A DNA stretch of 12,741 nucleotides from Armatimonadota bacterium (GTDB lineage Bacteria > Armatimonadota > Armatimonadia > Armatimonadales > Armatimonadaceae), in the NCBI GenBank assembly GCA_043754515.1, contig JAYUUO010000119.1:1-12741 (forward strand). Direction: 5' to 3'. How positions within the stretch are numbered: the stretch's first letter is position 1; each line of letters opens with the position of its first letter. Below, one piece after another: positions 1 to 12,465 of this stretch. A model generated the notes under the pieces. The model was not told the origin of the DNA and searched no databases. It saw only the letters and a program-made list of their open reading frames with translations. Both the position numbers and the translations under genes were made by a program.

Positions 1-660
1 CGAGGCGGTTTCTCTGACCCTCTCAAAGCGAGCCGCCGTGTGGCTTTGAGCGGGTAGATAGACAAAATAAGCGCTTCGTGTCCGCCGTCACCGCTCCGCA
101 GTGCGCGGGGTCGGTCAGTGATTTACCTCTGCCAACCGCTTGTAAAGGTGGCACGGTGGTCTCGCCATGCCAGCGGATTTACCTGAACAAGGTCCCCTTG
201 CTCCTGGTAGCCTCGGTCGTGACCGACCACGGGGGAGAAGGGAGCGTGTTGTATCTGGTGACGAGCGACGTTACCCAGGTGTTCCCGCCGCGGGAACACC
301 GACTAGACGCTCCGGCGATGCTTGCCATGTACAAAAAGCGGTGGAAATAGGCGAAACGGGTTTCTGCCGGATCGAGGAGTTTCACAAGTCCCTCAAGTCC
401 GAGAAACCGAAGGTTTTCGCGAGCAACGCGGCGTTCGCGAAGTCACCGACCAAGCGGGTGCGGACACAGAGCAACCATTTTTTTGCGAGTCTGGTTGCCT
501 TCACCAAAATGGAGGTGTTAAGGGTTTGCACACGGCTGAATCATTTCGCGGTGAAAGCGAAGTTGTATCAAGCGGCACTCGTCGCGGCGTTACAGCGGCT
601 TTCCGAGATGAACACGGGCGACGTTCTTGCCCATATCACACCCTGACTGCGTAAGGTGAG
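1..660 (+). mobile_element. Decayed IS701-family (ISAba11-like) insertion sequence: 3' part of transposase pseudogene plus right TIR
   Basis: Frames stitch to PLKASRRVALS / RFVS..RIYL..VLYLVTSD..YKKRWK / IEEFHKSLK..SNAAFAKSPTKRVRTQSNHFFASLVAFTKMEVL..LNHFAVKAKLY, the C-terminus typical of this DDE transposase group. There are frameshifts, stops and short insertions. It ends in TGCGTAAGGTGAG (648-660), matching the MITE ends at 9051 and 9395. Confidence 0.85.
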
Positions 661-672
661 TTAAGGATAATT

Positions 673-1095
673 ATGGCGGCTAAAGATTCGTATCACAATC
701 AATGTGTCCACTCTCTCCAGAAGGACGGATGGCTTATCACGCACGACCCGCTGACGTTGCGCATCGGGAAGACCGATGTAATGATTGACTTGGGCGCGGA
801 ACAGGTCGTCGGAGCGGAATGGGCGGGTGAACGTATCGCGGTGGCGATAAAAAGTTTCATCAGACCTTCGGCTGTGTATGATTTGGAGCAGGCTCTAGGG
901 CAGTTTACCCTTTACAAGGATGTACTGGAGCGATCCGCCGATGACGCCGACCGGGTTTTGTATCTTGCAGTCCGCGCCACGACATACGAGGAGATTTTCG
1001 GCGAGCCGATTGGTAAAATGCTCGTGGAGAACAAACGATTGCGGTTAGTCGTGTTCGATATAAATACGGATAAAATAGTACAATGGATACCGTAG
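673..1095 (+). CDS. xisH: XisH-family protein (fdxN element excision controlling factor; PD-(D/E)XK-like fold)
   Basis: MAAKD.YH...LQKDGWLITHDPL, IDLGAE, IKSF, ALGQF, LYLAV, IVQWIP motifs; RBS AAGGA at 663-667; overlaps xisI. Confidence 0.92.
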   Translation: MAAKDSYHNQCVHSLQKDGWLITHDPLTLRIGKTDVMIDLGAEQVVGAEWAGERIAVAIKSFIRPSAVYDLEQALGQFTLYKDVLERSADDADRVLYLAVRATTYEEIFGEPIGKMLVENKRLRLVVFDINTDKIVQWIP

Positions 1096-1421
1096 CGAAG
1101 TATCGTCAGGCGGTTAGAGAAGTGCCGATGCCGCTTACGAAGCGGCGATATGCGAACGCGGATTTGGTGAACGAGGCTGTTTTCGATGTCAAGAACGACC
1201 GATACATCATCGCTTCACACGGGTGGCAAAACGGCACGCAGCGTATGCACGGCGTGCTGGTTCACCTAGACATTATCGGCGACAAGGTTTGGATTCATCG
1301 CGACGGCACGGAAGAAGGGATCGCCTATGACCTTGAGGAGGCGGGCGTCCCGAAGCAGAACATCGTTCTGGCATTCCATCAGCCCCGAGATCGCATGGTA
1401 TATGGGTACGCCGCGTCGTGA
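1083..1421 (+). CDS. xisI: XisI-family protein
   Basis: MDT..KYRQ, VFD..NDRY....GW, VHLDI.GDKVWIHRDGTEEGIA.DL..AGVPKQNIVLAFHQP, GYA; canonical overlap with xisH. Confidence 0.93.
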   Translation: MDTVAKYRQAVREVPMPLTKRRYANADLVNEAVFDVKNDRYIIASHGWQNGTQRMHGVLVHLDIIGDKVWIHRDGTEEGIAYDLEEAGVPKQNIVLAFHQPRDRMVYGYAAS

Positions 1422-1503
1422 CTCCCCCGGTCCGTTATTTACCAGCCAAGCAGAACGCGGCACGCAGGAAACCGCTTGACGAACCGCGAACAGTACCAAA
1501 ACA

Positions 1504-2730
1504 ATGGCTAAGATAACCGAGGTGCGGGTGATCGTGACGAGTCCCGGTCGCAACTACGTGATGGTGAAAATACTCACCGACGAGCCGGGTCTGTACGGCG
1601 TCGGCGACGCGACCCTGAACGGCCGCGAACTCGCGGTCGCCGCCGCGCTGACCGAACATATCGCGCCGCTCCTGATCGGGCGCGACCCCGACCGCATTGA
1701 GGACATCTGGCAGTATCTGTATCGCGGCCCGTACTGGCGCGGCGGTCCCGTGCAGATGACCGCGCTCGCGGGCGTGGACATGGCCTTATGGGACATCAAA
1801 GGGAAGCGGGCGAACCTGCCGGTCTACTCCCTGCTCGGCGGCAAGACCCGCGAGGGTGCGCTATGTTACACGCACGCGGGCGGGCGCGACGCGGTGGAAT
1901 GCGAGGACGAGGTTCGCCGCGCGATGGAGCGGGGCTTCCAGGTCGTGCGAGCGCAGGTCGCGGTTCCCGGCGCGACTTCGACCTACGGGACGCGCGGCGC
2001 GGTGGAGGCGGCATCGGCGAAATGGGGCGGCATGGGCGGGCTTCCGCCGGTCGAGGGCGATTGGGAACCACTCGCCTATCTGCGCGTCGTCCCCCGCCTG
2101 ATGGCGCACCTTCGATCCACGGTGGGCGACGCGGTAGAGATCATTCATGACGTCCATCAGCGTCTGACCCCGCAACAGGCCGCGCGGCTGGGCCGGGAGC
2201 TGGAGCCGTTCCACCTGTTCTTTCTCGAGGACCCGGTGCGCCCCGAGTGGAAGGAAGGGTTACGCCTCGTTCGCGCACACACGACTACACCGCTCGCGCT
2301 CGGCGAACTTCTCCACTCGCTGTACGATTGTCTCCCGCTTCTCGTCGAGCGGCTGATTGACTTCGTGCGGTGCGACATCGCCCACATCGGCGGCATCTCC
2401 GAGGCGCGGCGCATCGCCGCCGTCGCCGAGCCGTTCGGGATCCGCACCGCCTGGCACGGGCCGGGGGATATTTCGCCGATCGCGCACGCGGCGAACGTCC
2501 ACGTAGATGTTTCCCTGACGAACTTCGGGGTGCAGGAGATGGTGTTCTTCCCGCCGGAGGTGGCGGAAGTAATTTCCGGCGCGCCCGAATACCACGATGG
2601 AAGGCTGTGGGCGAGTGACGCGCCAGGCCTCGGTTGCGACATTGACGAGGTAGCCGCGAAACGGTATCCATACGACCCCGCCTACCTTCCGGTCTGCCGC
2701 CGCGCCGACGGCGCGATGCACGACTGGTAG
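1504..2730 (+). CDS. manD: D-mannonate dehydratase / RspA subgroup of the enolase (mandelate racemase) superfamily
   Basis: VIVTSPGRNYV, GDATLNGRELAV, IEDIWQYLYRGPYWRGGPV, DMALWDIKGK; metal-ligand motifs HDVH, LEDP, LGE; WHGP; C-terminal AYLPV.R..DG.MHDW. Confidence 0.9.
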   Translation: MAKITEVRVIVTSPGRNYVMVKILTDEPGLYGVGDATLNGRELAVAAALTEHIAPLLIGRDPDRIEDIWQYLYRGPYWRGGPVQMTALAGVDMALWDIKGKRANLPVYSLLGGKTREGALCYTHAGGRDAVECEDEVRRAMERGFQVVRAQVAVPGATSTYGTRGAVEAASAKWGGMGGLPPVEGDWEPLAYLRVVPRLMAHLRSTVGDAVEIIHDVHQRLTPQQAARLGRELEPFHLFFLEDPVRPEWKEGLRLVRAHTTTPLALGELLHSLYDCLPLLVERLIDFVRCDIAHIGGISEARRIAAVAEPFGIRTAWHGPGDISPIAHAANVHVDVSLTNFGVQEMVFFPPEVAEVISGAPEYHDGRLWASDAPGLGCDIDEVAAKRYPYDPAYLPVCRRADGAMHDW

Positions 2731-2750
2731 CAATATGAGTCTGATACACT

Positions 2751-3554
2751 ATGTCCGTGCTAAACGCCATCGAGATCCGAAACGTTGACAAGATTTTCCG
2801 CGTCCGCAAAGCCGCGTACGCCGGTCTGAAAGGGCAACTCGGCGCATTTTTCAAAGGCATCCGCGCCCAGACCGAGGCCAAGGTCGGGCTGGGCGATATC
2901 TCGCTCTCCATCGCGCCCGGCGAGACGGTCGCGCTGATCGGCAGGAACAGCTCGGGTAAATCCACGCTCCTATCGCTCATCGCGCGGGTGATGAAGCCGG
3001 ACACGGGCACCGTCACGTTCCCCGCAAGCCCCGACCCTGAACGGCCACGCCTCGCGCCGCTCCTGGAAGTTGGGGCGGGGTTCCACCCCGACCTGACTGG
3101 GACGCAGAACATCTTCTTCAACGGCTCCATCCTGGGACTTACCCGGGCACAGATGCAGGCGCGGTACGAAGACATCAAGGCGTTCGCCGACTTCGAGAAC
3201 GACATCTACTATGATGCGCCGGTGCGAACCTACTCGTCGGGCATGTACGTCCGGCTCGGCTTCGCGGTCGCGGTACACACCGACCCGGACATCATCCTGA
3301 TTGACGAGTCGCTCGCGGTCGGTGACGAAGCATTTCAGGAGAAATGCTACGCGCGCATCGCGGAGTTCCAGAAGGACGGGCGCACCATCGTCTTTGTGTC
3401 GCACGACATGGCGGCGGTACGGCGGGTGGCATCTCGGGTCGTCTGGCTGTCACACGGCAGGATCGTGGGCGATAGCGCGGGAGACGGCGGCGGCATCGAG
3501 CCGGTCATAACGCGGTACCACGAGGATCTATACGCAACCCCCGAAAAAAAATAG
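2751..3554 (+). CDS. ABC transporter ATP-binding protein, Wzt/TagH-like (polysaccharide/polyol-phosphate export)
   Basis: Walker A GRNSSGKST, LLEVGAGFHPDLTG.QNI, signature YSSGM..RLGFAVA, Walker B IILIDE.LAVGD..FQ.KC, H-loop VSHD. Confidence 0.9.
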   Translation: MSVLNAIEIRNVDKIFRVRKAAYAGLKGQLGAFFKGIRAQTEAKVGLGDISLSIAPGETVALIGRNSSGKSTLLSLIARVMKPDTGTVTFPASPDPERPRLAPLLEVGAGFHPDLTGTQNIFFNGSILGLTRAQMQARYEDIKAFADFENDIYYDAPVRTYSSGMYVRLGFAVAVHTDPDIILIDESLAVGDEAFQEKCYARIAEFQKDGRTIVFVSHDMAAVRRVASRVVWLSHGRIVGDSAGDGGGIEPVITRYHEDLYATPEKK

Positions 3555-3675
3555 CCACCCGGCACCCGATAATGTAGCCATAATCGCGACTAATCCTTAC
3601 AATGAGTGTCGAAGGGCTTAAGCGTTGATCGCGCACGCGCCCCCTATGTTACGTAGAGGGCGGGAGGAATTATAT

Positions 3676-4215
3676 ATGACCCAATCCGCAGCCAGCGAAT
3701 TCTGGGTGTCCGAGGGAGCAGAGGACGCCGTTCGCAAGACGAAGTTGACACTGAAGAAATTGGGCGAGCTGACCGCCGTCGTGCCCGGACAGCACGTGGT
3801 CGGAACAGTCGCATTCGGCATACAAAACGTCACGCTGAAAATCGCGTGGCGGCCCGAAGAGATAGAGACCAAAGTAGACCGCATGGTCACCGGCCATGCC
3901 ACGACCGAAACCAAAACGCTGGGCACCTTGCTCTGCGTCGAGGCGACTATAGAAGGGCGGGGCGCGACGGGGAACGACGCCGCGCTCCGCAACGCGATGG
4001 AGCGGTTCGAGGATGCCTACATGCATTACGACCGCACCGACTACCAGCCCGACCGGCTGGGCTTCCTGCCCATCACGATCATCGGCGTCGTAATCGCGCT
4101 TATTTTGTTAGGCGTGTTGCTGGCGAAGAAGACCACCCTGTTCCAGGCCACGCCGTCGTCATCGCCGAGCGCGTCCGCGGATGCGTCGCCGGATGCACCC
4201 TTTATCGCGCCGTAA
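3676..4215 (+). CDS. Hypothetical membrane protein (single C-terminal TM helix, Ser/Ala/Pro tail)
   Basis: GGAGG RBS at 3663-3667 before ATG 3676; GC-rich codon pattern; hydrophobic stretch FLPITIIGVVIALILLGVLLA followed by KK. Confidence 0.75.
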   Translation: MTQSAASEFWVSEGAEDAVRKTKLTLKKLGELTAVVPGQHVVGTVAFGIQNVTLKIAWRPEEIETKVDRMVTGHATTETKTLGTLLCVEATIEGRGATGNDAALRNAMERFEDAYMHYDRTDYQPDRLGFLPITIIGVVIALILLGVLLAKKTTLFQATPSSSPSASADASPDAPFIAP

Positions 4216-4232
4216 CCGTCCGTATCCGTCTC

Positions 4233-4270
4233 GTTGGTCCCCCTCCCCGGCGAAGAGAGGGAGGACTGGC
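4233..4270. terminator. GC-rich bulged hairpin between convergent genes (terminator or REP-like)
   Basis: GTTGGTCC-CCCTC ... GAGGG-A-GGACTGGC pairs with G-U; there is no clear U-tract. Confidence 0.35.
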
Positions 4271-4326
4271 GCGGCGGTAGCCGATCCGGGCCTGGTGACA
4301 GCGTTCCGGGTAGGCGATCTTAATCG

Positions 4327-5415
4327 TCAGCGTCGCGCCCCTTTATTAGAAACGGCTTGTGAGCCGACGCGGGCCGGATAAGGCACGTTTGGTCCTTTGG
4401 TGCTGTGCCATAGGATGCGGTTCAGCGCGACGACTTGTACCCTGGTTAGGTGATCCGGTTCGGAGAAGTTCATTCGCTCGCTCGCCGCCGCGCCGTAAGC
4501 GACGGCGGCGTTCTTGACATTCAGGTCTATCCGTGGGGCGTGTAACGTGTACGGCGTCAGGTCGAGTTTGCCCGCGAACGCGGCGTACATGGGCGGCGCG
4601 GTGGCATCGTACTGGGGCATCGGCGGTAGACCGAGGATAAGTTCTATCGTCCGCAACATCGAGACGGTGTTGTAGCGCGTGCCGTCCACTCTCCCGAGGC
4701 ACGAGTGAGGCGAGACCACGAACGCGGTCGTCCGGTGCGCGTCCACGTGATCCGCGCTGTCCTGCGCGTCATCCTCGATGATGAAGATCGCCATCTCTTT
4801 CCAGTAGCGCGAACGCGAGCAGGCCGCTATAATTTCGCCCACGCCTTGATCGTTGGAGGCGATACAGGCTTGTGGCGTGAACGCGCCGGGACGTGTCCCT
4901 TCGGTGTAATCCTCGCGGAGCGACATTATCATCAAGTTCGGTAAATTGTTTTTCTCGTACTGCTTCAACTCTGCCGCGAAGATGTTTCCGTTCACCGTGT
5001 CGCACCGCTTGTCGTAACCCTCACGACAGACGGCGGGCATGTTCCTCTCCGTGTTGTTCGTCGCCCACGTGAAACAGTAGGACGCGAACGACTTGCCCTC
5101 CCGCTCGGCGACGTCCCAGACGCGTCCCGCCGGGGGGTAGATGTCCTTGTCCAGGAGAGGCCAGTCGGCGTGCCCGCCGTACGCGAGCATCCAAGCCCGC
5201 TCGCCGATGTCGGTGCTAATAGCTCCGGTGCTCCATGGGTGGCCGTTCCCAGACACCTCGCCGCTACAGAGTGTGTTGTCGAGCGTCACGAACTCGCGCG
5301 CGATCTTGTGTTCGTTTGGTGTCACCTTTTCGCCGAACAGCGTCAGGGACGAGTCGCCGTTCCCGAGCGGTTTACCCTTCGCATCTTTCAGGTCACCCAA
5401 TACCTGATCATAAGA
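4327..5415 (-). pseudogene. N-terminally truncated alkaline-phosphatase-like/phosphoesterase domain (C-terminal half of YncE-propeller/phosphoesterase fusion type)
   Basis: YDQVLGD..GNGD..LTLFGE.VTPN.H..A.EFV.LDN...GEVS..GH.W, IFIIEDDAQD..DHVDAHR, TVSMLRTIELILGLPPM.QYDA. The expected upstream ENRT is replaced by a stop; no signal peptide or propeller is present. Confidence 0.8.
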
Positions 5416-5447
5416 TCAACAGACTGCCAGAGTTATGGTAACCCTTT

Positions 5448-5628
5448 AGGAGTTACGCGGTTCGTCAAGGGACGCGGGTTAAAACCCACGTCATCGGCGA
5501 AACAAGTACAGTCAAAACTTGTTTTGACGATTGCCTGTCTAGACGCGTTCCGCGCCGGACGTCGGGTACCCGCTCGCGGGTGGGACGGGCGAATATGGGA
5601 GGAGGAACGCACCAACCGCGTAACTCCT
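5448..5628. mobile_element. MITE-1: 181-bp non-autonomous element with perfect TIRs and target-site duplication
   Basis: AGGAGTTACGCGGTT (5448-5462) / AACCGCGTAACTCCT (5614-5628), flanked by ACCCTTT at 5441-5447 and 5629-5635. An alternative reading is a 16-bp TIR with a 5-bp CCCTT duplication. Confidence 0.9.
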
Positions 5629-5686
5629 ACCCTTTATTAACAACACATTAAGGCTCTGCTAAGAACACGACACGAGACTTCACCGA

Positions 5687-6406
5687 TCACCCGATCCCCT
5701 CCGCGATCCCGAACCCGATCAGCCCGCCGAGTATCGTGACACCGCCCACGACCAGGCCCGCGACGACCGCGGCTCGCCACGACGGCTCGCGGAGCGCGAC
5801 GCGGGCGAGGGGACCCAAACTCAAGCCGATTATCAGTTCGGCGACCACGATATAGAGCGGCGTGTGCGTGCCGGGGAGCATCCGGCAGAACTCGTACTGC
5901 CACCAGTGCGCGTGGCGTGCCATCTCCTCGTAGAACGGGATGTTGACCGCGCCGACAACCGCCGACAGCACCACCCCGCGCCACGAGCCGACGCGCTCCA
6001 CGAACCGTGCCCCGAGGTATCCGATCTGCGCCGAGACCAGCATCCAGGCAAGCGGCATCCACCAGGGCGACTCCCAGAGCATAGTGCTTTTCGCCGGCCC
6101 GTAGTCCAGTGTGCCAGTGAAACGGACACAAAGCGCGTCCGCGACCAGCTCCACGACGCCGAGGCAGAGCCCGAACAAGAGGAGCCGCGCCACCGCCGCG
6201 TCCCGGTAGCGCAGGATATGCGCCGCGAATATCGCCCCGTTTATCCCGCAGAGCAGAGCGGCGGTTCGTCCGTCCGACCACGGCTTGTCCGCGACGAACA
6301 ACACCAGAATCACTGAGGTCGCGATGGTAACCAGCACCGTTCGCAGACGCGCCCCCTCCCGGCTATCCGCGACCACTACCGGCACGCCCGGAAAAAAAGT
6401 TTTCAT
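5687..6406 (-). CDS. Uncharacterised multi-pass membrane protein
   Basis: 239 aa with about 7 hydrophobic segments; motifs ELVADA, TLDY, WWMPLAW, PFYEEMA...WWQY; divergent from comEA. Confidence 0.8.
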   Translation of the reverse strand: MKTFFPGVPVVVADSREGARLRTVLVTIATSVILVLFVADKPWSDGRTAALLCGINGAIFAAHILRYRDAAVARLLLFGLCLGVVELVADALCVRFTGTLDYGPAKSTMLWESPWWMPLAWMLVSAQIGYLGARFVERVGSWRGVVLSAVVGAVNIPFYEEMARHAHWWQYEFCRMLPGTHTPLYIVVAELIIGLSLGPLARVALREPSWRAAVVAGLVVGGVTILGGLIGFGIAEGIG

Positions 6407-6471
6407 TTCCGCCTATTTTACTGTTAGATCCAGGTCTCTCGCCTCGTTAGTGTAGGGAAGGGCGAAAAATT

Positions 6472-7521
6472 ATGAAGTGGGCAGGAATTAGTGGCGCGCT
6501 CGCGGGCACAGCGCGCGAGCGGCTGGGTATAGGGGCGGTAGTAATCGGGGTCATCGTCGGCTCCGGGCTGATCGTCTCCGGCTCCTGCCGCAAAGACAGG
6601 TCGGCATTAGGCACCGTCACGGTGTTCCCGGCGAAGCCGATCCGGGGGGCGGAGAGGCGGCCCGTTGTCGCGCCCGAGTCGCCGCGGACGGACACGATCG
6701 TCGTTTACGTGACGGGGGCAGTGAAGCGTCCCGGCGTGTACACACTCCCCGCGCACACCCGCCTGTATCACGCGATCCGGGCGGCGGGCGGCTTCAAGGC
6801 GAACGCGGTAACCGAGGCATTGAATCTCGCGGATCAGGCGCGGGACGGCGACCAACTTTGTGTCCCCGTACGCCAGAAAGTGGTGCCCGCCGCGCCCGCG
6901 TCCCGATCCGAAACCGCGCGGGGTGGAACCCGCCTGATTGAACGGTACGCGCGGCGCGCCCCCGCATCCTACCCGAACATCATTCGCAAGGCGGCACTCC
7001 CCGCATCGGTCACTCTCCCGCCGCTACCGGAAGGCGGTGTCGGACCCGAGGAGAGCGGCGAACCCATCGTGACCGTGATTGCTACCCCAACGCCCGCGCC
7101 CGGCCGCGTGCTAGATGGCACTCTACAAGCCGTCACGGAGGCAAGCAATACAGAGCCGCGTGTCGCTTCGGAGGGTGCGAATGTTGGCGTGGGACTCCCC
7201 CCGTCCGCTCGACCGTCGGTCGCCTTAACCGGCGTTATCCCCTTGCCCGCGACGGGGCGACGGGGCGCACGCGGCATGTCCCGAGCCAGTGCGCCACGCG
7301 GCGGCGTGAAGTTCAAGAATCCCGGCGATGGCGTGGTGCATATCAACAGTGCCGGAGCCAGCGAACTCGAACACCTGCCGCGTTGCGGCCCCGCCATGAG
7401 CGCGAAGATCCTCGCCTACCGCGCCCAGATCGGCAGGTTCACCGACCTGAAGCAGCTGATGGATGTAAAGGGGTGTGGGGAAAAGACGTTTGAAAAGTGG
7501 CAACCGTTTCTAGCTCTGTAG
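6472..7521 (+). CDS. comEA: ComEA-family DNA-binding competence protein (TM anchor, SLBB domain, long Pro-rich linker, two HhH motifs)
   Basis: VVYVTGAVKRPGVY.L....R...AI.AAGG, LNLA....DGDQL.VP; C-terminal HINSA...ELE.LP..GP.....I..YR...G.F....QL..VKG.GEKTFEK. Confidence 0.9.
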   Translation: MKWAGISGALAGTARERLGIGAVVIGVIVGSGLIVSGSCRKDRSALGTVTVFPAKPIRGAERRPVVAPESPRTDTIVVYVTGAVKRPGVYTLPAHTRLYHAIRAAGGFKANAVTEALNLADQARDGDQLCVPVRQKVVPAAPASRSETARGGTRLIERYARRAPASYPNIIRKAALPASVTLPPLPEGGVGPEESGEPIVTVIATPTPAPGRVLDGTLQAVTEASNTEPRVASEGANVGVGLPPSARPSVALTGVIPLPATGRRGARGMSRASAPRGGVKFKNPGDGVVHINSAGASELEHLPRCGPAMSAKILAYRAQIGRFTDLKQLMDVKGCGEKTFEKWQPFLAL

Positions 7522-7547
7522 CAGGTGTTTCAGTGTCAGGAGCAAGC

Positions 7548-7970
7548 TGGTCCGAGTTCAAAAACGAGGTGTGGACGATTCCCAAGGAGCGGGTAAAGAA
7601 TGGGCGAGCACACAGCATTCCAATCTCGCCAGAGGTAGCACGACTATTGGATACTGTCCGATACGGTGACGCGCCAAAAGAAGATAGACGGGATGAGAAT
7701 GAGTATCTATTTCATGCGAGACGGCAGGGTTGTATTTCTTCCAGGACTATTCATCTGGCACTTCAGCGGATCAAAGTTGCAAGCGGTCTCAAGCATTTCA
7801 CGGCACACGATCTGCGGCGCACCTACGCAACAGGTCTCCGCCGCATCGGTATACCGCGAGAAACAGTCGCACGTATTCTGAACCATACTTCTCGTTCCGT
7901 AACACTCGTCTACGATTAGTACGACGAAATGCCCGAGATGTCAGATGTATTTCATCTACCAGCAGGGTAA
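7548..7970 (+). pseudogene. Tyrosine recombinase/phage integrase C-terminal fragment
   Basis: WTIPKERVKNGRAHSIPIS, FTAHDLRRTYAT, ILNH, VTLVYD*YD. The N-terminus, including the catalytic Arg box I, is missing, and there is an in-frame TAG at 7917-7919. Confidence 0.88.
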
Positions 7971-7986
7971 GAGGAATCAATAGGGC

Positions 7987-8008
7987 GATTATTCCGCGCG
8001 GAATAATC
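7987..8008. repeat. Perfect 22-bp palindrome
   Basis: GATTATTCCGC|GCGGAATAATC. Confidence 0.85.
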
Positions 8009-8013
8009 CACGG

Positions 8014-8043
8014 CGGCACCGAGTAGCATCACTATCGGTGCCG
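8014..8043. terminator. Strong bulged hairpin downstream of the 8070-8591 gene
   Basis: CGGCACCGA-G-TAG catca CTA-TCGGTGCCG; lies 26 bp beyond the stop of the minus-strand gene; no long U-tract. Confidence 0.45.
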
Positions 8044-8069
8044 TGAATGAGTGTCAGCATTGAGGCGGC

Positions 8070-8591
8070 TTAGCAATCGCAGTTAAATAGAACTCTTTTC
8101 AGACGGTCGTAGGTATCCTGTGATCCTACGCCACCGTAATAGGTGTTGTCTTCGGGGTTGTACCCCTGGCTCCAATGCTTCCACTCGTTCTTAGTACTGA
8201 TGTCAAAGTGGAAGTCACGATTCGCTGCGAATAAAAGCCCGTCTGATCCTTCGTAGGATGCGTCGCCACCAGTGAAGTTGCCGTTCCACTCGTCGCCGGA
8301 GTCGGAACTCATGATGTCACAGACAAATGCCGTATATCCGACTGCATAAAACCTGAACTCTCCGTTTACTATCGTGCAACTCCCCCGTTTGATTTCAGCG
8401 AATTGGAACGCTTTGTACAGGAGGCCGTTCGAGACGAGATCGGCGCCGATCGGGTAGCCAGATACCGCGACAAGTGCTCTGCTGTCCGATTCCGTGAGAC
8501 GCACCTCGCGAGTCAGGGACAGTATAGTACCGTGCTTACACGGCGAAGATTTCAGTTGTTTCTCCAGGGAATCCTCTTCGAGAGTGGTCAT
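8070..8591 (-). CDS. Hypothetical protein, 173 aa (C-terminal pattern recalls DUF6294-type proteins, unverified)
   Basis: RBS GGAAGGA upstream of ATG; open frame in lower-GC DNA; pattern F.F.EI..G.CT ... SSD..D.W ... terminal Cys. Confidence 0.65.
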   Translation of the reverse strand: MTTLEEDSLEKQLKSSPCKHGTILSLTREVRLTESDSRALVAVSGYPIGADLVSNGLLYKAFQFAEIKRGSCTIVNGEFRFYAVGYTAFVCDIMSSDSGDEWNGNFTGGDASYEGSDGLLFAANRDFHFDISTKNEWKHWSQGYNPEDNTYYGGVGSQDTYDRLKRVLFNCDC

Positions 8592-8699
8592 GCTGTTAAT
8601 CCTTCCGCGCCAACCAGAGTGGCAAAGTCTCGTCCATTTGCTAGCACCGGAAAATGTTACTCCAAAGTATTTCTTCTGTCAAACACGCCCCGTCCTGGT

Positions 8700-9018
8700 G
8701 CAAGTGCCATTCGTCGGGTGGTAGAAGTCAATCCTGCCACCCATGGAACATGGGTACCCGCAAGCCAAACGTGTTCCCGCTGTGGGAACATTGCTAAAAA
8801 ACCGTTGAAAGAGCGTTGGCACTATGCGAAAAGACCCTAAAGGTCTTTTGCGCGACTGTCCGATTTGCTTTTTGTCTTTGGACAGAGACACTAACGCTTC
8901 GTTCAACATATTGTAAGCCGCGCAAGGTTACTGTGAAGCAAAAACCGCTGTGGGAACACACAGCGTTGTCGCTATAGCGGCATAGAAGCCACGGGGCTTG
9001 TCCCCGGGGAGTGTTCAC
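8700..9018 (+). mobile_element. tnpB: IS200/IS605-family remnant: TnpB C-terminal zinc ribbon/RuvC-III pseudogene plus right end
   Basis: ASAIRRVVEVNPA..SQTCSRCGNIAKKPLKERWH, then after a frameshift DCPICFLSLDRDTNASFNIL. Right end is GAAGCCACGGGGCTTGTCCCCGGGGAGTGTTCAC (subterminal hairpin plus TCAC at 9015-9018). Confidence 0.88.
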
Positions 9019-9050
9019 TTGATCAAACCGATGAAGCTACCCATTCTTAA

Positions 9051-9395
9051 CCCACCTTACGCAGTCAGGTTGTGATCGCCCCTCAAATGCCCCGTTACGA
9101 GAGGCATTTTTCAGAGGTATGGCATGCCGAGATTTCTTTTCCCTATTGCCCGTCAACTGAAGTTGCGGGCTCGGTGGTTTCTGCGAAACCGGACGTGCTT
9201 CGCACGAAGCAGGCGTGTCCAAACGAGGGTTTGTGAGCGCATCTCCTCGTGCGAAGCACGTTTGGCGTGGCGCAAATCGGCTCTGCCGATTTCGCAGAAG
9301 CCACTAAGCCCGCTAACTTCAGTTGACGGGGCAAGCAGAAGGAATCATTTGTGATAATGTGATCGTCCTGTTTTAGAGGTATTGCGTAAGGTAAG
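9051..9395. mobile_element. MITE-2: 345-bp IS701-related non-autonomous element with target-site duplication
   Basis: TIRs CCCACCTTACGCA (9051-9063) / TGCGTAAGGTAAG (9383-9395); TTCTTAA at 9044-9050 and 9396-9402. The reverse complement of 9046-9076 matches 635-665 at 29/31. Confidence 0.88.
9146..9334. repeat. REPIN-like long imperfect palindrome nested in MITE-2
   Basis: Outer arms CCCGTCAACTGAAGTTGCGGGCTCGGTGGTTTCTGCGAA / TTCGCAGAAGCCACTAAGCCCGCTAACTTCAGTTGACGGG; inner arms ACGTGCTTCGCACGA / TCGTGCGAAGCACGT; each arm contains its own short hairpin. Confidence 0.8.
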
Positions 9396-9449
9396 TTCTT
9401 AAGATGTTGCGGGGCTTGCCCCGACGAGTATGTCATTTATTGGGGAAGA

Positions 9450-10353
9450 CTATTGTTTTGGATTTTGCTTCTTGCTACCGGGAACACGGAGGAGTTGTTT
9501 TCCCCCCAACTTACTGCCCACTTCAATCACTTGATCGTTTCGCCAATGGGCGGTTTCCCACGAATCCGGCGTTTCCAAAACGACGACGCCTTTTTGCACG
9601 TCGGCAACCCAAAGCGTGCCAACAGGGTTCCGTCCCATCACTAAACGCCCCAATGGACTCCAATACGTCTCCTCTTGCAACGCTTCGGCGATGGTTTCGC
9701 CCTTCCGGTTTATCAAAAGGTCGGGCGGCAGATATTGGTCGCCGTCGCCGTCGCTGTATACGACCACCTGGGGCATATGCATTTCAATTTTGCGCGGCCC
9801 GTTAAATAAAGCAATCTCGCTTAAACACACGTCGTTATCAGGGCTGGGCGCAAACCCAACCAGTTCAATCCGCAGTTTGGTAATGGCTTGCCGGGGCAAA
9901 GCGACCTCGTGCCAGCCCATCTTGTCGCTCAAACGAACGGTCTTCACGGTTTTGCTATGGGCGGCGAAGCTCGTGACGCGCAGTTCCGTGACGCGGTTGT
10001 TGCGCTTGAAAACGTCGCCGTTTTTGTTGTAGCCGTTCATTATGTGGAGGCTGTCCATCACAACCGGGTGTTTCGGCATAAGCAACAAGGCGTATTATTT
10101 CCCGTCCAATGCCTCGTCTACGCTGTCCTACGGCTTGCCTTTGCCACCGCTGAAAACCCACGCGGTTTCGGACCGGTTGTCAAACAAATGGGTGAGCGGA
10201 TAGCCCGTGTGTTTGCGCCCGGTTTGGAAGTTTTCCGACGAATACACTTTCCAATCGCTCCATTCAATGGTCGCGGCGTGTGCGAACCGGTTTATCCCGG
10301 CCCCACCTACTCAGCAAAATGCTCAGGATAAAAAGCGCGATGGTTTTTTGCAT
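9450..10353 (-). pseudogene. Secreted protein pseudogene with discoidin-like/NADase-type glycan-binding domain
   Basis: ATG 10353 MQKTIALFILSILLS (signal peptide), frameshift near 10287-10308, then FAHA-ATIEW..HLFDN.SETAWVFSG. In-frame stops at 10128-10130 and 10095-10097 precede IMNGYNK....F.RNNRV..L and DVCLSEIALF. Confidence 0.75.
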
Positions 10354-11133: not shown

Positions 11134-12465
11134 TCACTGAACTTTTTGCCAGCGCACACTGCCGTAGGTTCCCGCCCCGTCCGCGTGGGCGTAGCTTCCG
11201 CCGCCCGCATAATCTTCCTGATACGTGACCAGATACAGCCGCGCCCATTTTTCCGTGGGCAGTTTGTACAACAGGTAACCGGATTTACGGCGGTACAGCG
11301 GAACGCCCAATGCGTTTTTGGTGATTTCCCACGAACTGTCCACCATCGCGGTTTTCAAAACGCGAGCTTTGGGGTCGTTTTGGGCGACCTGCTTGCGAAG
11401 GCTTGCTTCTAACCCGGCGTCATGGAAAACGTTGGTCGGAAAAGAGTTAAGCGGGGCGCGGGCGTCCACGGCGGCTCTGAGCGCGTCCAGTTTTGTAATC
11501 AGCGGCTGCAAAACGCTGTTGGGCATGGCTTGTCGCCCGCTTTGCTGGTAATCAGCGTCAAGGAGCCGCTTCATTTTTTGCAGATAGACCGCACGGTCGC
11601 CAATCATCTCATCCGCTTCGCGGGCGGGAATAAACTCGCCCGCCTTGATTTTTTTAATCATTTTGTCCATGTCGCCAATCGCCATGTCCAAATCGTGCTG
11701 AACGAGTTCGGGCAGTTCGCTCAGTATAGCTTTTCCGGTCTGCACCATTTCGGGCCGTGCCTGCGCCAGTTTTTGGTTTGCTTCGGCTATGGCTTTTGCG
11801 CCGGTAACGTCGGGGAAGCTCGATTTGTCAATCAAGTCGTTTTTCAAGTCGGGATGCCGCTTCAAAACGCCCTCCAGTTTCGCGGTCGCTATTTCCAGCT
11901 TCGCGACCACCTCAGGCCATTGTTCGTTGGGCACGGGCAGGCGCGTCTCCTGTATCTCGCGGTACGAATCCGATACAAGGCGGCTGTCGTCCGGCAGAAA
12001 AACATCAGGAAGGCTCGTCTTGCGACCCGTGATTTGGCAGCAAATTTCCAGCATTTTGGTCATCAAACCGCTGTAACTCAAGGCGTCCAAGCCTTGTTTT
12101 GCGGCTTGGTTATATTCCTTGCCCCCGTATTTTAAAGCGTTGGGCAATTCCCCCCCACCAATGGGAAACTGGTAGCCAGATTGCCCCGGACTGCGGCGCA
12201 TTTCCCTGTCTTTCAGGGCGGCAATGCTCGTTTCGTAGATAGCGGCTGCCTCGTCGTATTTTTTCTGCCCGAAAAAGCGGTCGGCTTCCAAACTCTTCTT
12301 ATAAATTTGGTAAACCGCTTTTTCGCTTTCCGTTTTGGGTGGCTTGGGCATATATTGCGACCAATGCGCTGTCGCCTTAGTGGGACGCCCGTTCATTCCC
12401 AGCATGCCCAATACGGCGGCAACAAATACCATCCGTGCCATTTCCGCATATTTACTTGTTTTCAT
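11134..12465 (-). CDS. Secreted hypothetical protein, 443 aa (signal peptide, TPR-like helix pair, helical middle, distinct C-terminal domain)
   Basis: RBS GGAGG upstream of ATG 12465; MKTSKY..MVFVAAVLGMLG..ATA signal; EADRFFGQKKYDEAAAIYE TPR-like; C-terminal WEITKNALGVPLYRRK..YQEDYAGGGSY; uninterrupted frame. Confidence 0.8.
   Translation of the reverse strand: MKTSKYAEMARMVFVAAVLGMLGMNGRPTKATAHWSQYMPKPPKTESEKAVYQIYKKSLEADRFFGQKKYDEAAAIYETSIAALKDREMRRSPGQSGYQFPIGGGELPNALKYGGKEYNQAAKQGLDALSYSGLMTKMLEICCQITGRKTSLPDVFLPDDSRLVSDSYREIQETRLPVPNEQWPEVVAKLEIATAKLEGVLKRHPDLKNDLIDKSSFPDVTGAKAIAEANQKLAQARPEMVQTGKAILSELPELVQHDLDMAIGDMDKMIKKIKAGEFIPAREADEMIGDRAVYLQKMKRLLDADYQQSGRQAMPNSVLQPLITKLDALRAAVDARAPLNSFPTNVFHDAGLEASLRKQVAQNDPKARVLKTAMVDSSWEITKNALGVPLYRRKSGYLLYKLPTEKWARLYLVTYQEDYAGGGSYAHADGAGTYGSVRWQKVQ

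Follow-up and report, generated by a model that had tools for sequence, protein, structure and literature searches.

Short bulged hairpins in an Armatimonadota genome are insertions that resemble the small dispersed repeats of Nostoc

Introduction

Small dispersed repeats (SDRs) of the families SDR1-8 were reportedly described by Elhai et al. in 2008 in Nostoc punctiforme and its relatives, and how repeats of fewer than 40 bases spread has been an open question since. In one account, repetitive extragenic palindromic (REP) systems need a GTAG tag and are cut at CT, and the targets of IS200/IS605 insertion sequences (IS) are set by guides located 5′ of the hairpin (PMC8266576). Subclass 1.2 of the Y1 transposases is presented in PMC6006769 as lacking IS ends and having no known substrate. 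Here we analyze a 12,741-nt stretch of DNA from an Armatimonadota bacterium (contig JAYUUO010000119.1 of assembly GCA_043754515.1, hereafter the window), in which an initial annotation, made from the letters alone, had listed six hairpins that begin with GCGAA and had taken them for a protein-recognition signature comparable to that of the hairpins bound by HUH enzymes. It overlooked that the hairpins had themselves been inserted. For five of them, one being a nest of two, empty sites in congeners or paralogues reveal a clean insertion. Our literature search, with most subscription papers outside its reach, returned no account of such repeats in Armatimonadota.

Results

Hairpins as insertions in the window

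All six hairpin strings were confirmed, at positions 351-367, 399-420 (reverse complement), 5497-5524, 8826-8853, 9270-9295 (reverse complement) and 10282-10306, each beginning with GCGAA in the orientation given. The first two lie in the 3′ part and right end of a broken IS701/IS4-like element with a DDE transposase gene (1..662, + strand), which hosts four insertions. This element has an 87.6% paralogue on contig C150 of the same genome, and its homologue L010 in the congener G002 holds a 406-aa open frame with the Pfam domain DDE_5 (L, C and G numbers are our handles for loci, contigs and genomes). Hairpin 351-367 is contained in a 23-nt bulged unit of the YAGG...CCGR type (348..370, + strand), which belongs to a family of 22-24-nt units and shifts the transposase frame, and hairpin 399-420 in a 24-nt CG...GA bulged unit (398..421, − strand) that is in frame. 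Both units are missing from the G002 homologues L006, L010 and L011, and one contig loose end at position 422, from sequencing run X4, shows the empty form of the second site. Their folds are modest when compared to shuffles (z −1.1 to −2.0).

Two further hairpins fold strongly. A 31-nt bulged unit at 8824..8854 (+ strand, containing 8826-8853; z −5.8) sits in the zinc-ribbon codons of the 3′ remnant and right end of an IS200/IS605 tnpB element (8699..9021, + strand), a 67% match to the G002 locus L046, where the homologous frame carries the Pfam domain Cas12f1-like_TNB. The unit is missing from L046 and L056, its net length being one base below the 32-nt unit. A 30-nt bulged unit at 9268..9297 (− strand, covering 9270-9295; z −4.9) lies within an inverted-repeat unit at 9152-9325; it is missing from the homologues L054 and L055, and L052 holds a diverged copy.

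The stem at 5497-5524 is chimeric: its two sides come from different units, the left arm from a 22-nt unit and the right arm from a second one nested within it. The outer 22-nt CAGG...CCGA unit (5494..5537, − strand), split by the inner 22-nt unit (5509..5530, + strand), is whole in three copies (on C59, C305 and C310) of a miniature inverted-repeat transposable element (MITE), and the inner site is empty in the copies on C59 and C305. This MITE (5447..5629, + strand) is 183 nt long, has 16-nt terminal inverted repeats and about 35 copies, and is built from nested hairpin modules. Exact 4-6-nt repeats flank six of its 12 complete copies. Its ends are common to an autonomous IS in L092, and the copies preserve the succession in which the hairpin modules were gained.

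Other insertions were absent from the list of six. A 27-nt CAGG...CCGA unit with a perfect stem (276..302, + strand; z −5.7) is missing from L006 and L011, and a diverged copy stands in frame in the 406-residue transposase frame of L010. A 30-nt hairpin insertion of a different family (83..112, no strand assigned) is cleanly missing from three G002 homologues, L010 and L011 among them; its fold is degenerate (z −0.1), its boundary may slide 3 nt to the left, and matches to a loose CCGTC...GCGCGGG pattern built for it were drowned in chance matches. Within the tnpB remnant, a probable hairpin insertion of the CACCC...GGGTACCC type, a type also present in the MITE, was placed with approximate boundaries at 8738..8759 (+ strand; net 18-nt gap relative to L046), and a 27-nt insertion with a decayed fold (8922..8948, no strand assigned; z about 0; boundary may slide 4 nt) is missing from L046 and L056. 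The sixth listed hairpin (10282..10306, no strand assigned) is weak, folding no better than shuffles on either strand (z −0.6), and matched no family descriptor. It lies close to where a broken gene for a secreted protein starts; the sole homologue of this gene found in 70 other genomes is distant (38%) and not alignable at the hairpin. That gene (9450-10350, − strand) has two in-frame TAG stops and a frame shift near its start, where the hairpin lies.

Junctions and target site

With unit ends defined as C-N...G-N, filled and empty rows differed by precisely the unit in 36 of 45 cases, and target duplication was seen in none. The flanks are neither repeated nor mutually complementary above chance, and a one-base target duplication likewise did not exceed chance. 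Among 86 units with distinct flanks, position −3 is a purine in 72 and position −1 is A or T in 68, with a weak preference for C at −5 (36 units); on the other side, T occupies +2 in 49 of 85 (a pyrimidine in 65) and G occupies +4 in 57 of 85. The preferred target, common to the families, is a 9-base pseudo-palindrome, (C)NRN[W]NYNG, symmetric about the −1 base. At least three of the four target positions are satisfied by 64 of 85 units, as opposed to 12% of a phase-matched local background. A codon-phase artefact as the source of the motif was ruled out by this background. The sites of one family are also ranked by a matrix derived from a different family (p 2e-8 and 3e-7). The tag of REP elements is not seen at the stem foot, with G at −1 in three of 41 CAGG-type and five of 29 CAAG-type units, and −2 unconserved, in a check for GTAG/CGTC.

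In G002, two IS200 tnpA paralogues (85% identity) each have a 30-nt unit inserted in frame at a shared site; the two units differ, point in opposite directions and adjoin the same central base, which indicates independent reuse of the site. Of 12 sites with a central T in the empty homologue, eight have A or C when filled (two of these eight may represent one event). Contigs of four sequencing runs aligned to the window yielded one empty-form loose end, MITE variants and no clean 22-31-nt deletion rows. Strand bias was not observed (73 same-orientation versus 85 opposite-orientation pairs; 14 of 31 units on the G-rich strand), nor did a comparison with replication orientation reveal any, on contigs that are short and of which the richest is a Mu-like prophage.

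Census, families and fold

The pattern NNN-AAA-stem-loop-stem-TTT-bulge-N′N′N′ has 86 matches genome-wide; with six other A/T trimers in place of AAA the count falls to 0-1, and with TTT it is 22. A relaxed bulged-hairpin pattern has 135 matches (100 loci) versus 4, 5 and 12 in three shuffles. Among 172 AAA hairpins selected with the base ignored, 63 pair 3 bp more across a one-base 3′ bulge (shuffled partners: mean 7.1, maximum 16), and their basal triplets include AGA, CGA, GAA, CGG, GCA and GCG. A second group, YAGG-stem-loop-CCGR, measures 21-30 nt and is partly without a bulge. Five hand-built family patterns gave 33, 11, 3, 65 and 10 matches versus 0, 0-2, 0, 9-15 and 0 in shuffles, and the union of all searches amounts to 153 candidate loci on 71 contigs, some of which are chance matches. 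Common traits are CA...GA-type ends (C-A/G/T ... G-A being the commonest), A/T-tract stems and often a one-base 3′ bulge. Unit length ranges from 20 to 34 nt, with modes at 30, 24 and 22 among 86 units.

The bulged fold is common to several sequence families and is kept by compensatory change. Units picked by their ends only have the inner stem paired in 92 of 105 cells (maximum of 85 after arm swaps). In 28 aligned 30-mers, for which inner pairing was a selection criterion and among which related copies are not independent, 23 two-sided changes occur in seven of 12 pairs, a result found in 0 of 500 shuffles and compared with at most five in slid controls. Wobble pairs in the stems favour neither strand. 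Units nest inside one another and also occur inside MITEs and short tandem (heptamer-like) repeats. The same genome contains other repeats, namely 19 copies of a perfect 22-nt hairpin and a repeat of 45-56 nt with C/G runs.

The GCGAA start that had been proposed as the recurring recognition signature is not enriched at hairpin bases genome-wide, an outcome that the initial annotation had named in advance as refuting it. It was observed 77 times at the base of stems of at least 6 bp (92.7 expected) and 20 times at stems of at least 8 bp (11.3 expected), the majority of the latter being copies of one MITE. A stem of at least 5 bp follows GCGAA in 645 of 24671 occurrences (2.6%), compared with 2.1-3.7% for nine comparator 5-mers, and GCG is the basal triplet of only three of the 63 bulged AAA hairpins. 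Within the window, a hairpin of at least 4 bp follows 11 of 70 GCGAA (3-nt-block shuffles: mean 3.4, none of 200 equal to it; genome rate 2084/24671 = 8.4%), a local excess explained by the several real elements that the window contains. A one-base 3′ bulge near the base exists in four of the six hairpins (351, 399, 8826 and 9270). An Rfam search gave one chance match only. What survives of the protein-recognition reading is a real, covarying bulged-hairpin architecture that is likely read by a protein.

Genomic setting and spread

The loci are clustered: 78 of 153 have a neighbour within 1 kb, compared with a random mean of 8.9. The Mu-like prophage, with 18 loci, is the richest contig, followed by a second phage-like contig with 13. 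Many other loci interrupt transposases, the families of which were assigned by reading translations; the three metagenome loci inspected, out of eight, likewise interrupt transposases. Units are mostly intragenic in mobile genes and pile up in IS elements, MITEs and prophages, which probably reflects purifying selection in core genes. Since their length is a multiple of three in 42 of 77 cases, insertion is not frame-aware and selection likely sorts the products. In a prophage DNA methylase region (L060:10921-11709 and 12119-12298, contig C143), several 30-nt units occur, and a single open frame holds two of these.

We counted 18 copies of the CAAG pattern in the source genome, four in G002 and zero in 59 further relatives; for the CAGG pattern the counts were 27 in the source genome, 23 in G003 and 0-1 in 69 others, from which we conclude that the families are genus-level and turn over between species. 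Across the phylum, the 22-nt pattern was found in none of 300 other genomes. A scan of a wide genome collection returned at least 111 matches, most of them single. Among the matches listed, 52 were paired, about half were unpaired and nine had a target score of at least 3, and these do not demonstrate cross-phylum spread; two viral contig searches gave 0 and 1 match. Most units have no comparable empty site because the unit-rich prophage contigs have almost no homologues in three congeners, and searches for empty sites of the IS630 and IS3 insertions found none. A 170-nt stretch (L066:6950-7125, contig C233), to which about 40 copies in each of three congeners are related, is probably a repeated protein motif.

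Several neighbouring features of the window were also recorded. A XisH-XisI pair at 673-1421 adjoins the end of the IS at 1..662. A tyrosine recombinase fragment (7497-7919) follows a comEA-like gene and precedes a strong hairpin (8012-8043); here begins an accessory region of lower GC for which three congeners gave no counterpart. A shell at 9043-9400, with ends as in the 1-662 IS, encloses the 174-nt inverted-repeat unit (9152-9325), which has relatives in G001 and G002; it is followed by an IS200/IS605-like end at 9405-9437.

Candidate movers

The source genome contains four Y1 matches, and its candidates of this kind are a frameshifted Y1 gene, a divergent intact one and an IS200/IS605 remnant. 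Subclass 1.2-like Y1 genes (Y---Q--HH) are present in the source genome (the frameshifted and the divergent intact gene), G001 and G003. An intact divergent HUH/Y1 gene lies right after trpB (L002:1414-1896, contig C71); it has no flanking repeats and is possibly domesticated. In G003, a Y1 gene (L279:1290-1967) stands between inverted repeats of about 85 nt that are unrelated to the units. At 29 Y1 loci of relatives, the sole family units seen lie inside a tnpA or a neighbouring IS. The source genome also encodes phage integrases and two reverse transcriptases, one of the diversity-generating retroelement (DGR) type and one retron-like. The former (388 aa) belongs to a DGR-like cassette with a bAvd gene and a template-repeat-like stretch downstream (L141:1000-2804, contig C197); the latter (470 aa) directly follows a gene with SWIM- and BRCT-like motifs identified by eye (L140:1270-3629, contig C263). 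None of the reverse transcriptases, phage integrases or Y1 genes of the source genome is flanked by units.

Discussion

We consider it likely that the hairpins are non-coding insertion elements of 21-34 nt from several families, pasted by one trans-acting enzyme at a preferred 9-base target. A single mover serving all families is probable because different sequences share the fold, the ends and the preferred landing site. The moving form would be a fold-back single strand, since a double-stranded transposition intermediate is implausible at such a size. The enzyme would bind the folded single-stranded unit and join it into the nine-base target at the central base, often replacing that base.

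Several points weigh against this proposal. The target motif was derived from the same set that it scores, the cross-family test being the fairer one, and the family patterns were made by hand from the matches themselves, with a background of 9-15 per shuffle for the loose CAGG class. In 22 held-out congener units, nine score at least 3 (background 12.7%), with T at +2 in five and G at +4 in nine, so that the 5′ half of the target holds and its 3′ half is weak, many of these units sharing one heptamer-like host repeat. Two further filled/empty pairs are one base short, and the empty homologues are only 70-92% identical, for which reason central-base and junction differences may partly be drift. 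In the contigs available, neither an excised form nor a site segregating within one population was found. Finally, the obvious enzymes show no link to the units: in draft assemblies, family units flank none of 29 Y1 loci of relatives and no Y1 match of the source genome, Y1 genes are found in 23 of 31 family genomes, almost all of which lack these unit patterns, and the two-sided target, together with an orientation bias that was looked for and not seen, suits HUH chemistry poorly.

As to which enzyme pastes the units, an orphan HUH/Y1 TnpA of the subclass 1.2-like type is the leading, though weak, candidate, and only a lead given how common Y1 genes are in the family genomes. An undescribed type of enzyme is conceivable, if unlikely; it would move divergent fold-back units by their shape and end dinucleotides, exchanging the central base of the 9-base pseudo-palindrome. 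Its chemistry would then be distinct from DDE transposition, guide-directed HUH transposition and retro-insertion, and its substrates would be the smallest mobile DNAs known.

The absence of any linked enzyme, the symmetric target, the replaced central base and the one-base length errors are compatible with movement that needs no dedicated transposase, in which a host nuclease would nick the target and repair synthesis would switch template onto a hairpin extruded elsewhere, copying it in by a route akin to homing or conversion; directed cutting has been proposed for SDR5 in the highly iterated palindrome HIP1 (PMC4390886). We regard this as unlikely, since flanks are neither complementary nor duplicated above chance, and repair alone would not predict precise conserved ends across families or conserved bulges. 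Improbable as well is a strand exchange over a one-base overlap, similar to that of tyrosine recombinases, in which "coupling" bases from the donor would remain at the junctions. This model, patterned on Tn916 and the folded attC sites of integrons, accounts for a pseudo-palindrome centred on one base, for foreign bases at both junction positions and for extrahelical bases in the fold. Simple heteroduplex segregation would not be expected to leave several sites with non-target bases on both sides, however, and the 9-12-bp stems appear short for two protomers of an enzyme of which none is linked to the units.

Movement via RNA that is reverse-transcribed into the target could explain variable terminal bases as non-templated additions, in a genome with two reverse transcriptases. 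We find it distinctly improbable: these enzymes are a DGR reverse transcriptase beside an Avd gene and a retron-like one, there is no sense bias among 11 frame-assignable units (seven sense, four antisense), and wobble pairs favour neither strand. The HUH system of REP or IS200/IS605 type suggested by the initial annotation, recognizing GCGAA and the bulge, fares worse and is very improbable. It agrees with the lack of target duplication and the presence of Y1 genes, and E. coli TnpA-REP does need bulged hairpins (PMC8266576). Nevertheless GCGAA is not enriched, there is neither a GTAG/CGTC tag nor a REP-associated tyrosine transposase (RAYT) gene flanked by units, no units flank Y1 loci, units lie mostly within mobile genes, the target is two-sided and no strand bias was seen. 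Ordinary terminators or chance hairpins that are immobile can be dismissed, modest as the fold of individual 23-24-nt units is (z −1.1 to −2.0), by the clean presence or absence relative to homologues, the broken reading frames, the nesting and the different units at one site.

This genus offers handles on the spread of such repeats: several families with common ends and fold, one target, a twice-used site and a central-base change. The families, target and junctions define substrates and a target library for assaying candidate enzymes. By inserting 8-10 residues in frame into transposases and phage proteins, or by breaking them, units edit the mobile gene pool. Should the mover be a new enzyme, it would represent a compact means of writing short sequences into DNA without duplication.

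Comparison with known systems

By the features examined, the units are not REP elements, IS200/IS605 derivatives or MITEs. DDE-mobilized MITEs keep their parent IS's terminal inverted repeats and duplicate the target; the hairpin units are without duplication, whereas their 183-nt host MITE shows both features. RPE-1, one of the Rickettsia palindromic elements (RPEs), is longer than the units. Like RPEs as portrayed in PMC3733652, the units are palindromic insertions tolerated in frame in proteins; unlike them, they are often not a multiple of three in length and are concentrated in dispensable DNA. They share with REP and REPIN sequences and their RAYTs, as described in PMC8266576, PMC6006769 and PMC3733652, short palindromes, some with a functional bulge and some in frame in genes, and the expectation of no duplication. 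They differ in having no GTAG/CGTC tag, in being singles rather than doublets, in lying mainly in mobile genes, in having no adjacent RAYT and in a junction that is not a fixed CT. IS200/IS605 ends and their non-autonomous derivatives are also bulged fold-back hairpins inserted without duplication. In the units, however, one hairpin is the whole element, no guide lies upstream of the stem, no strand bias was seen on the short contigs, and the target preference extends to both sides (−3, −1, +2, +4) instead of a 5′-only tetra- or pentanucleotide; moreover, IS200/IS605 genes serve here as targets.

The closest known kind appears to be the Nostoc SDRs, likened by features and not by sequence. SDRs, treated in part in PMC4390886 and PMC2884548, are dispersed repeats of 20-30 nt whose families share a fold with compensatory changes, which nest within one another and within minitransposons and heptamer-like repeats, and which insert precisely by a mover that is not known. 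The units show the SDR-type features of size and copy number, empty sites without duplication, common fold with compensation, and nesting. SDR5 is the family tied to HIP1, whereas the units target the degenerate (C)NRN[W]NYNG. They differ from SDRs in belonging to another phylum, in using one degenerate target across families and in a documented replacement of the central base.

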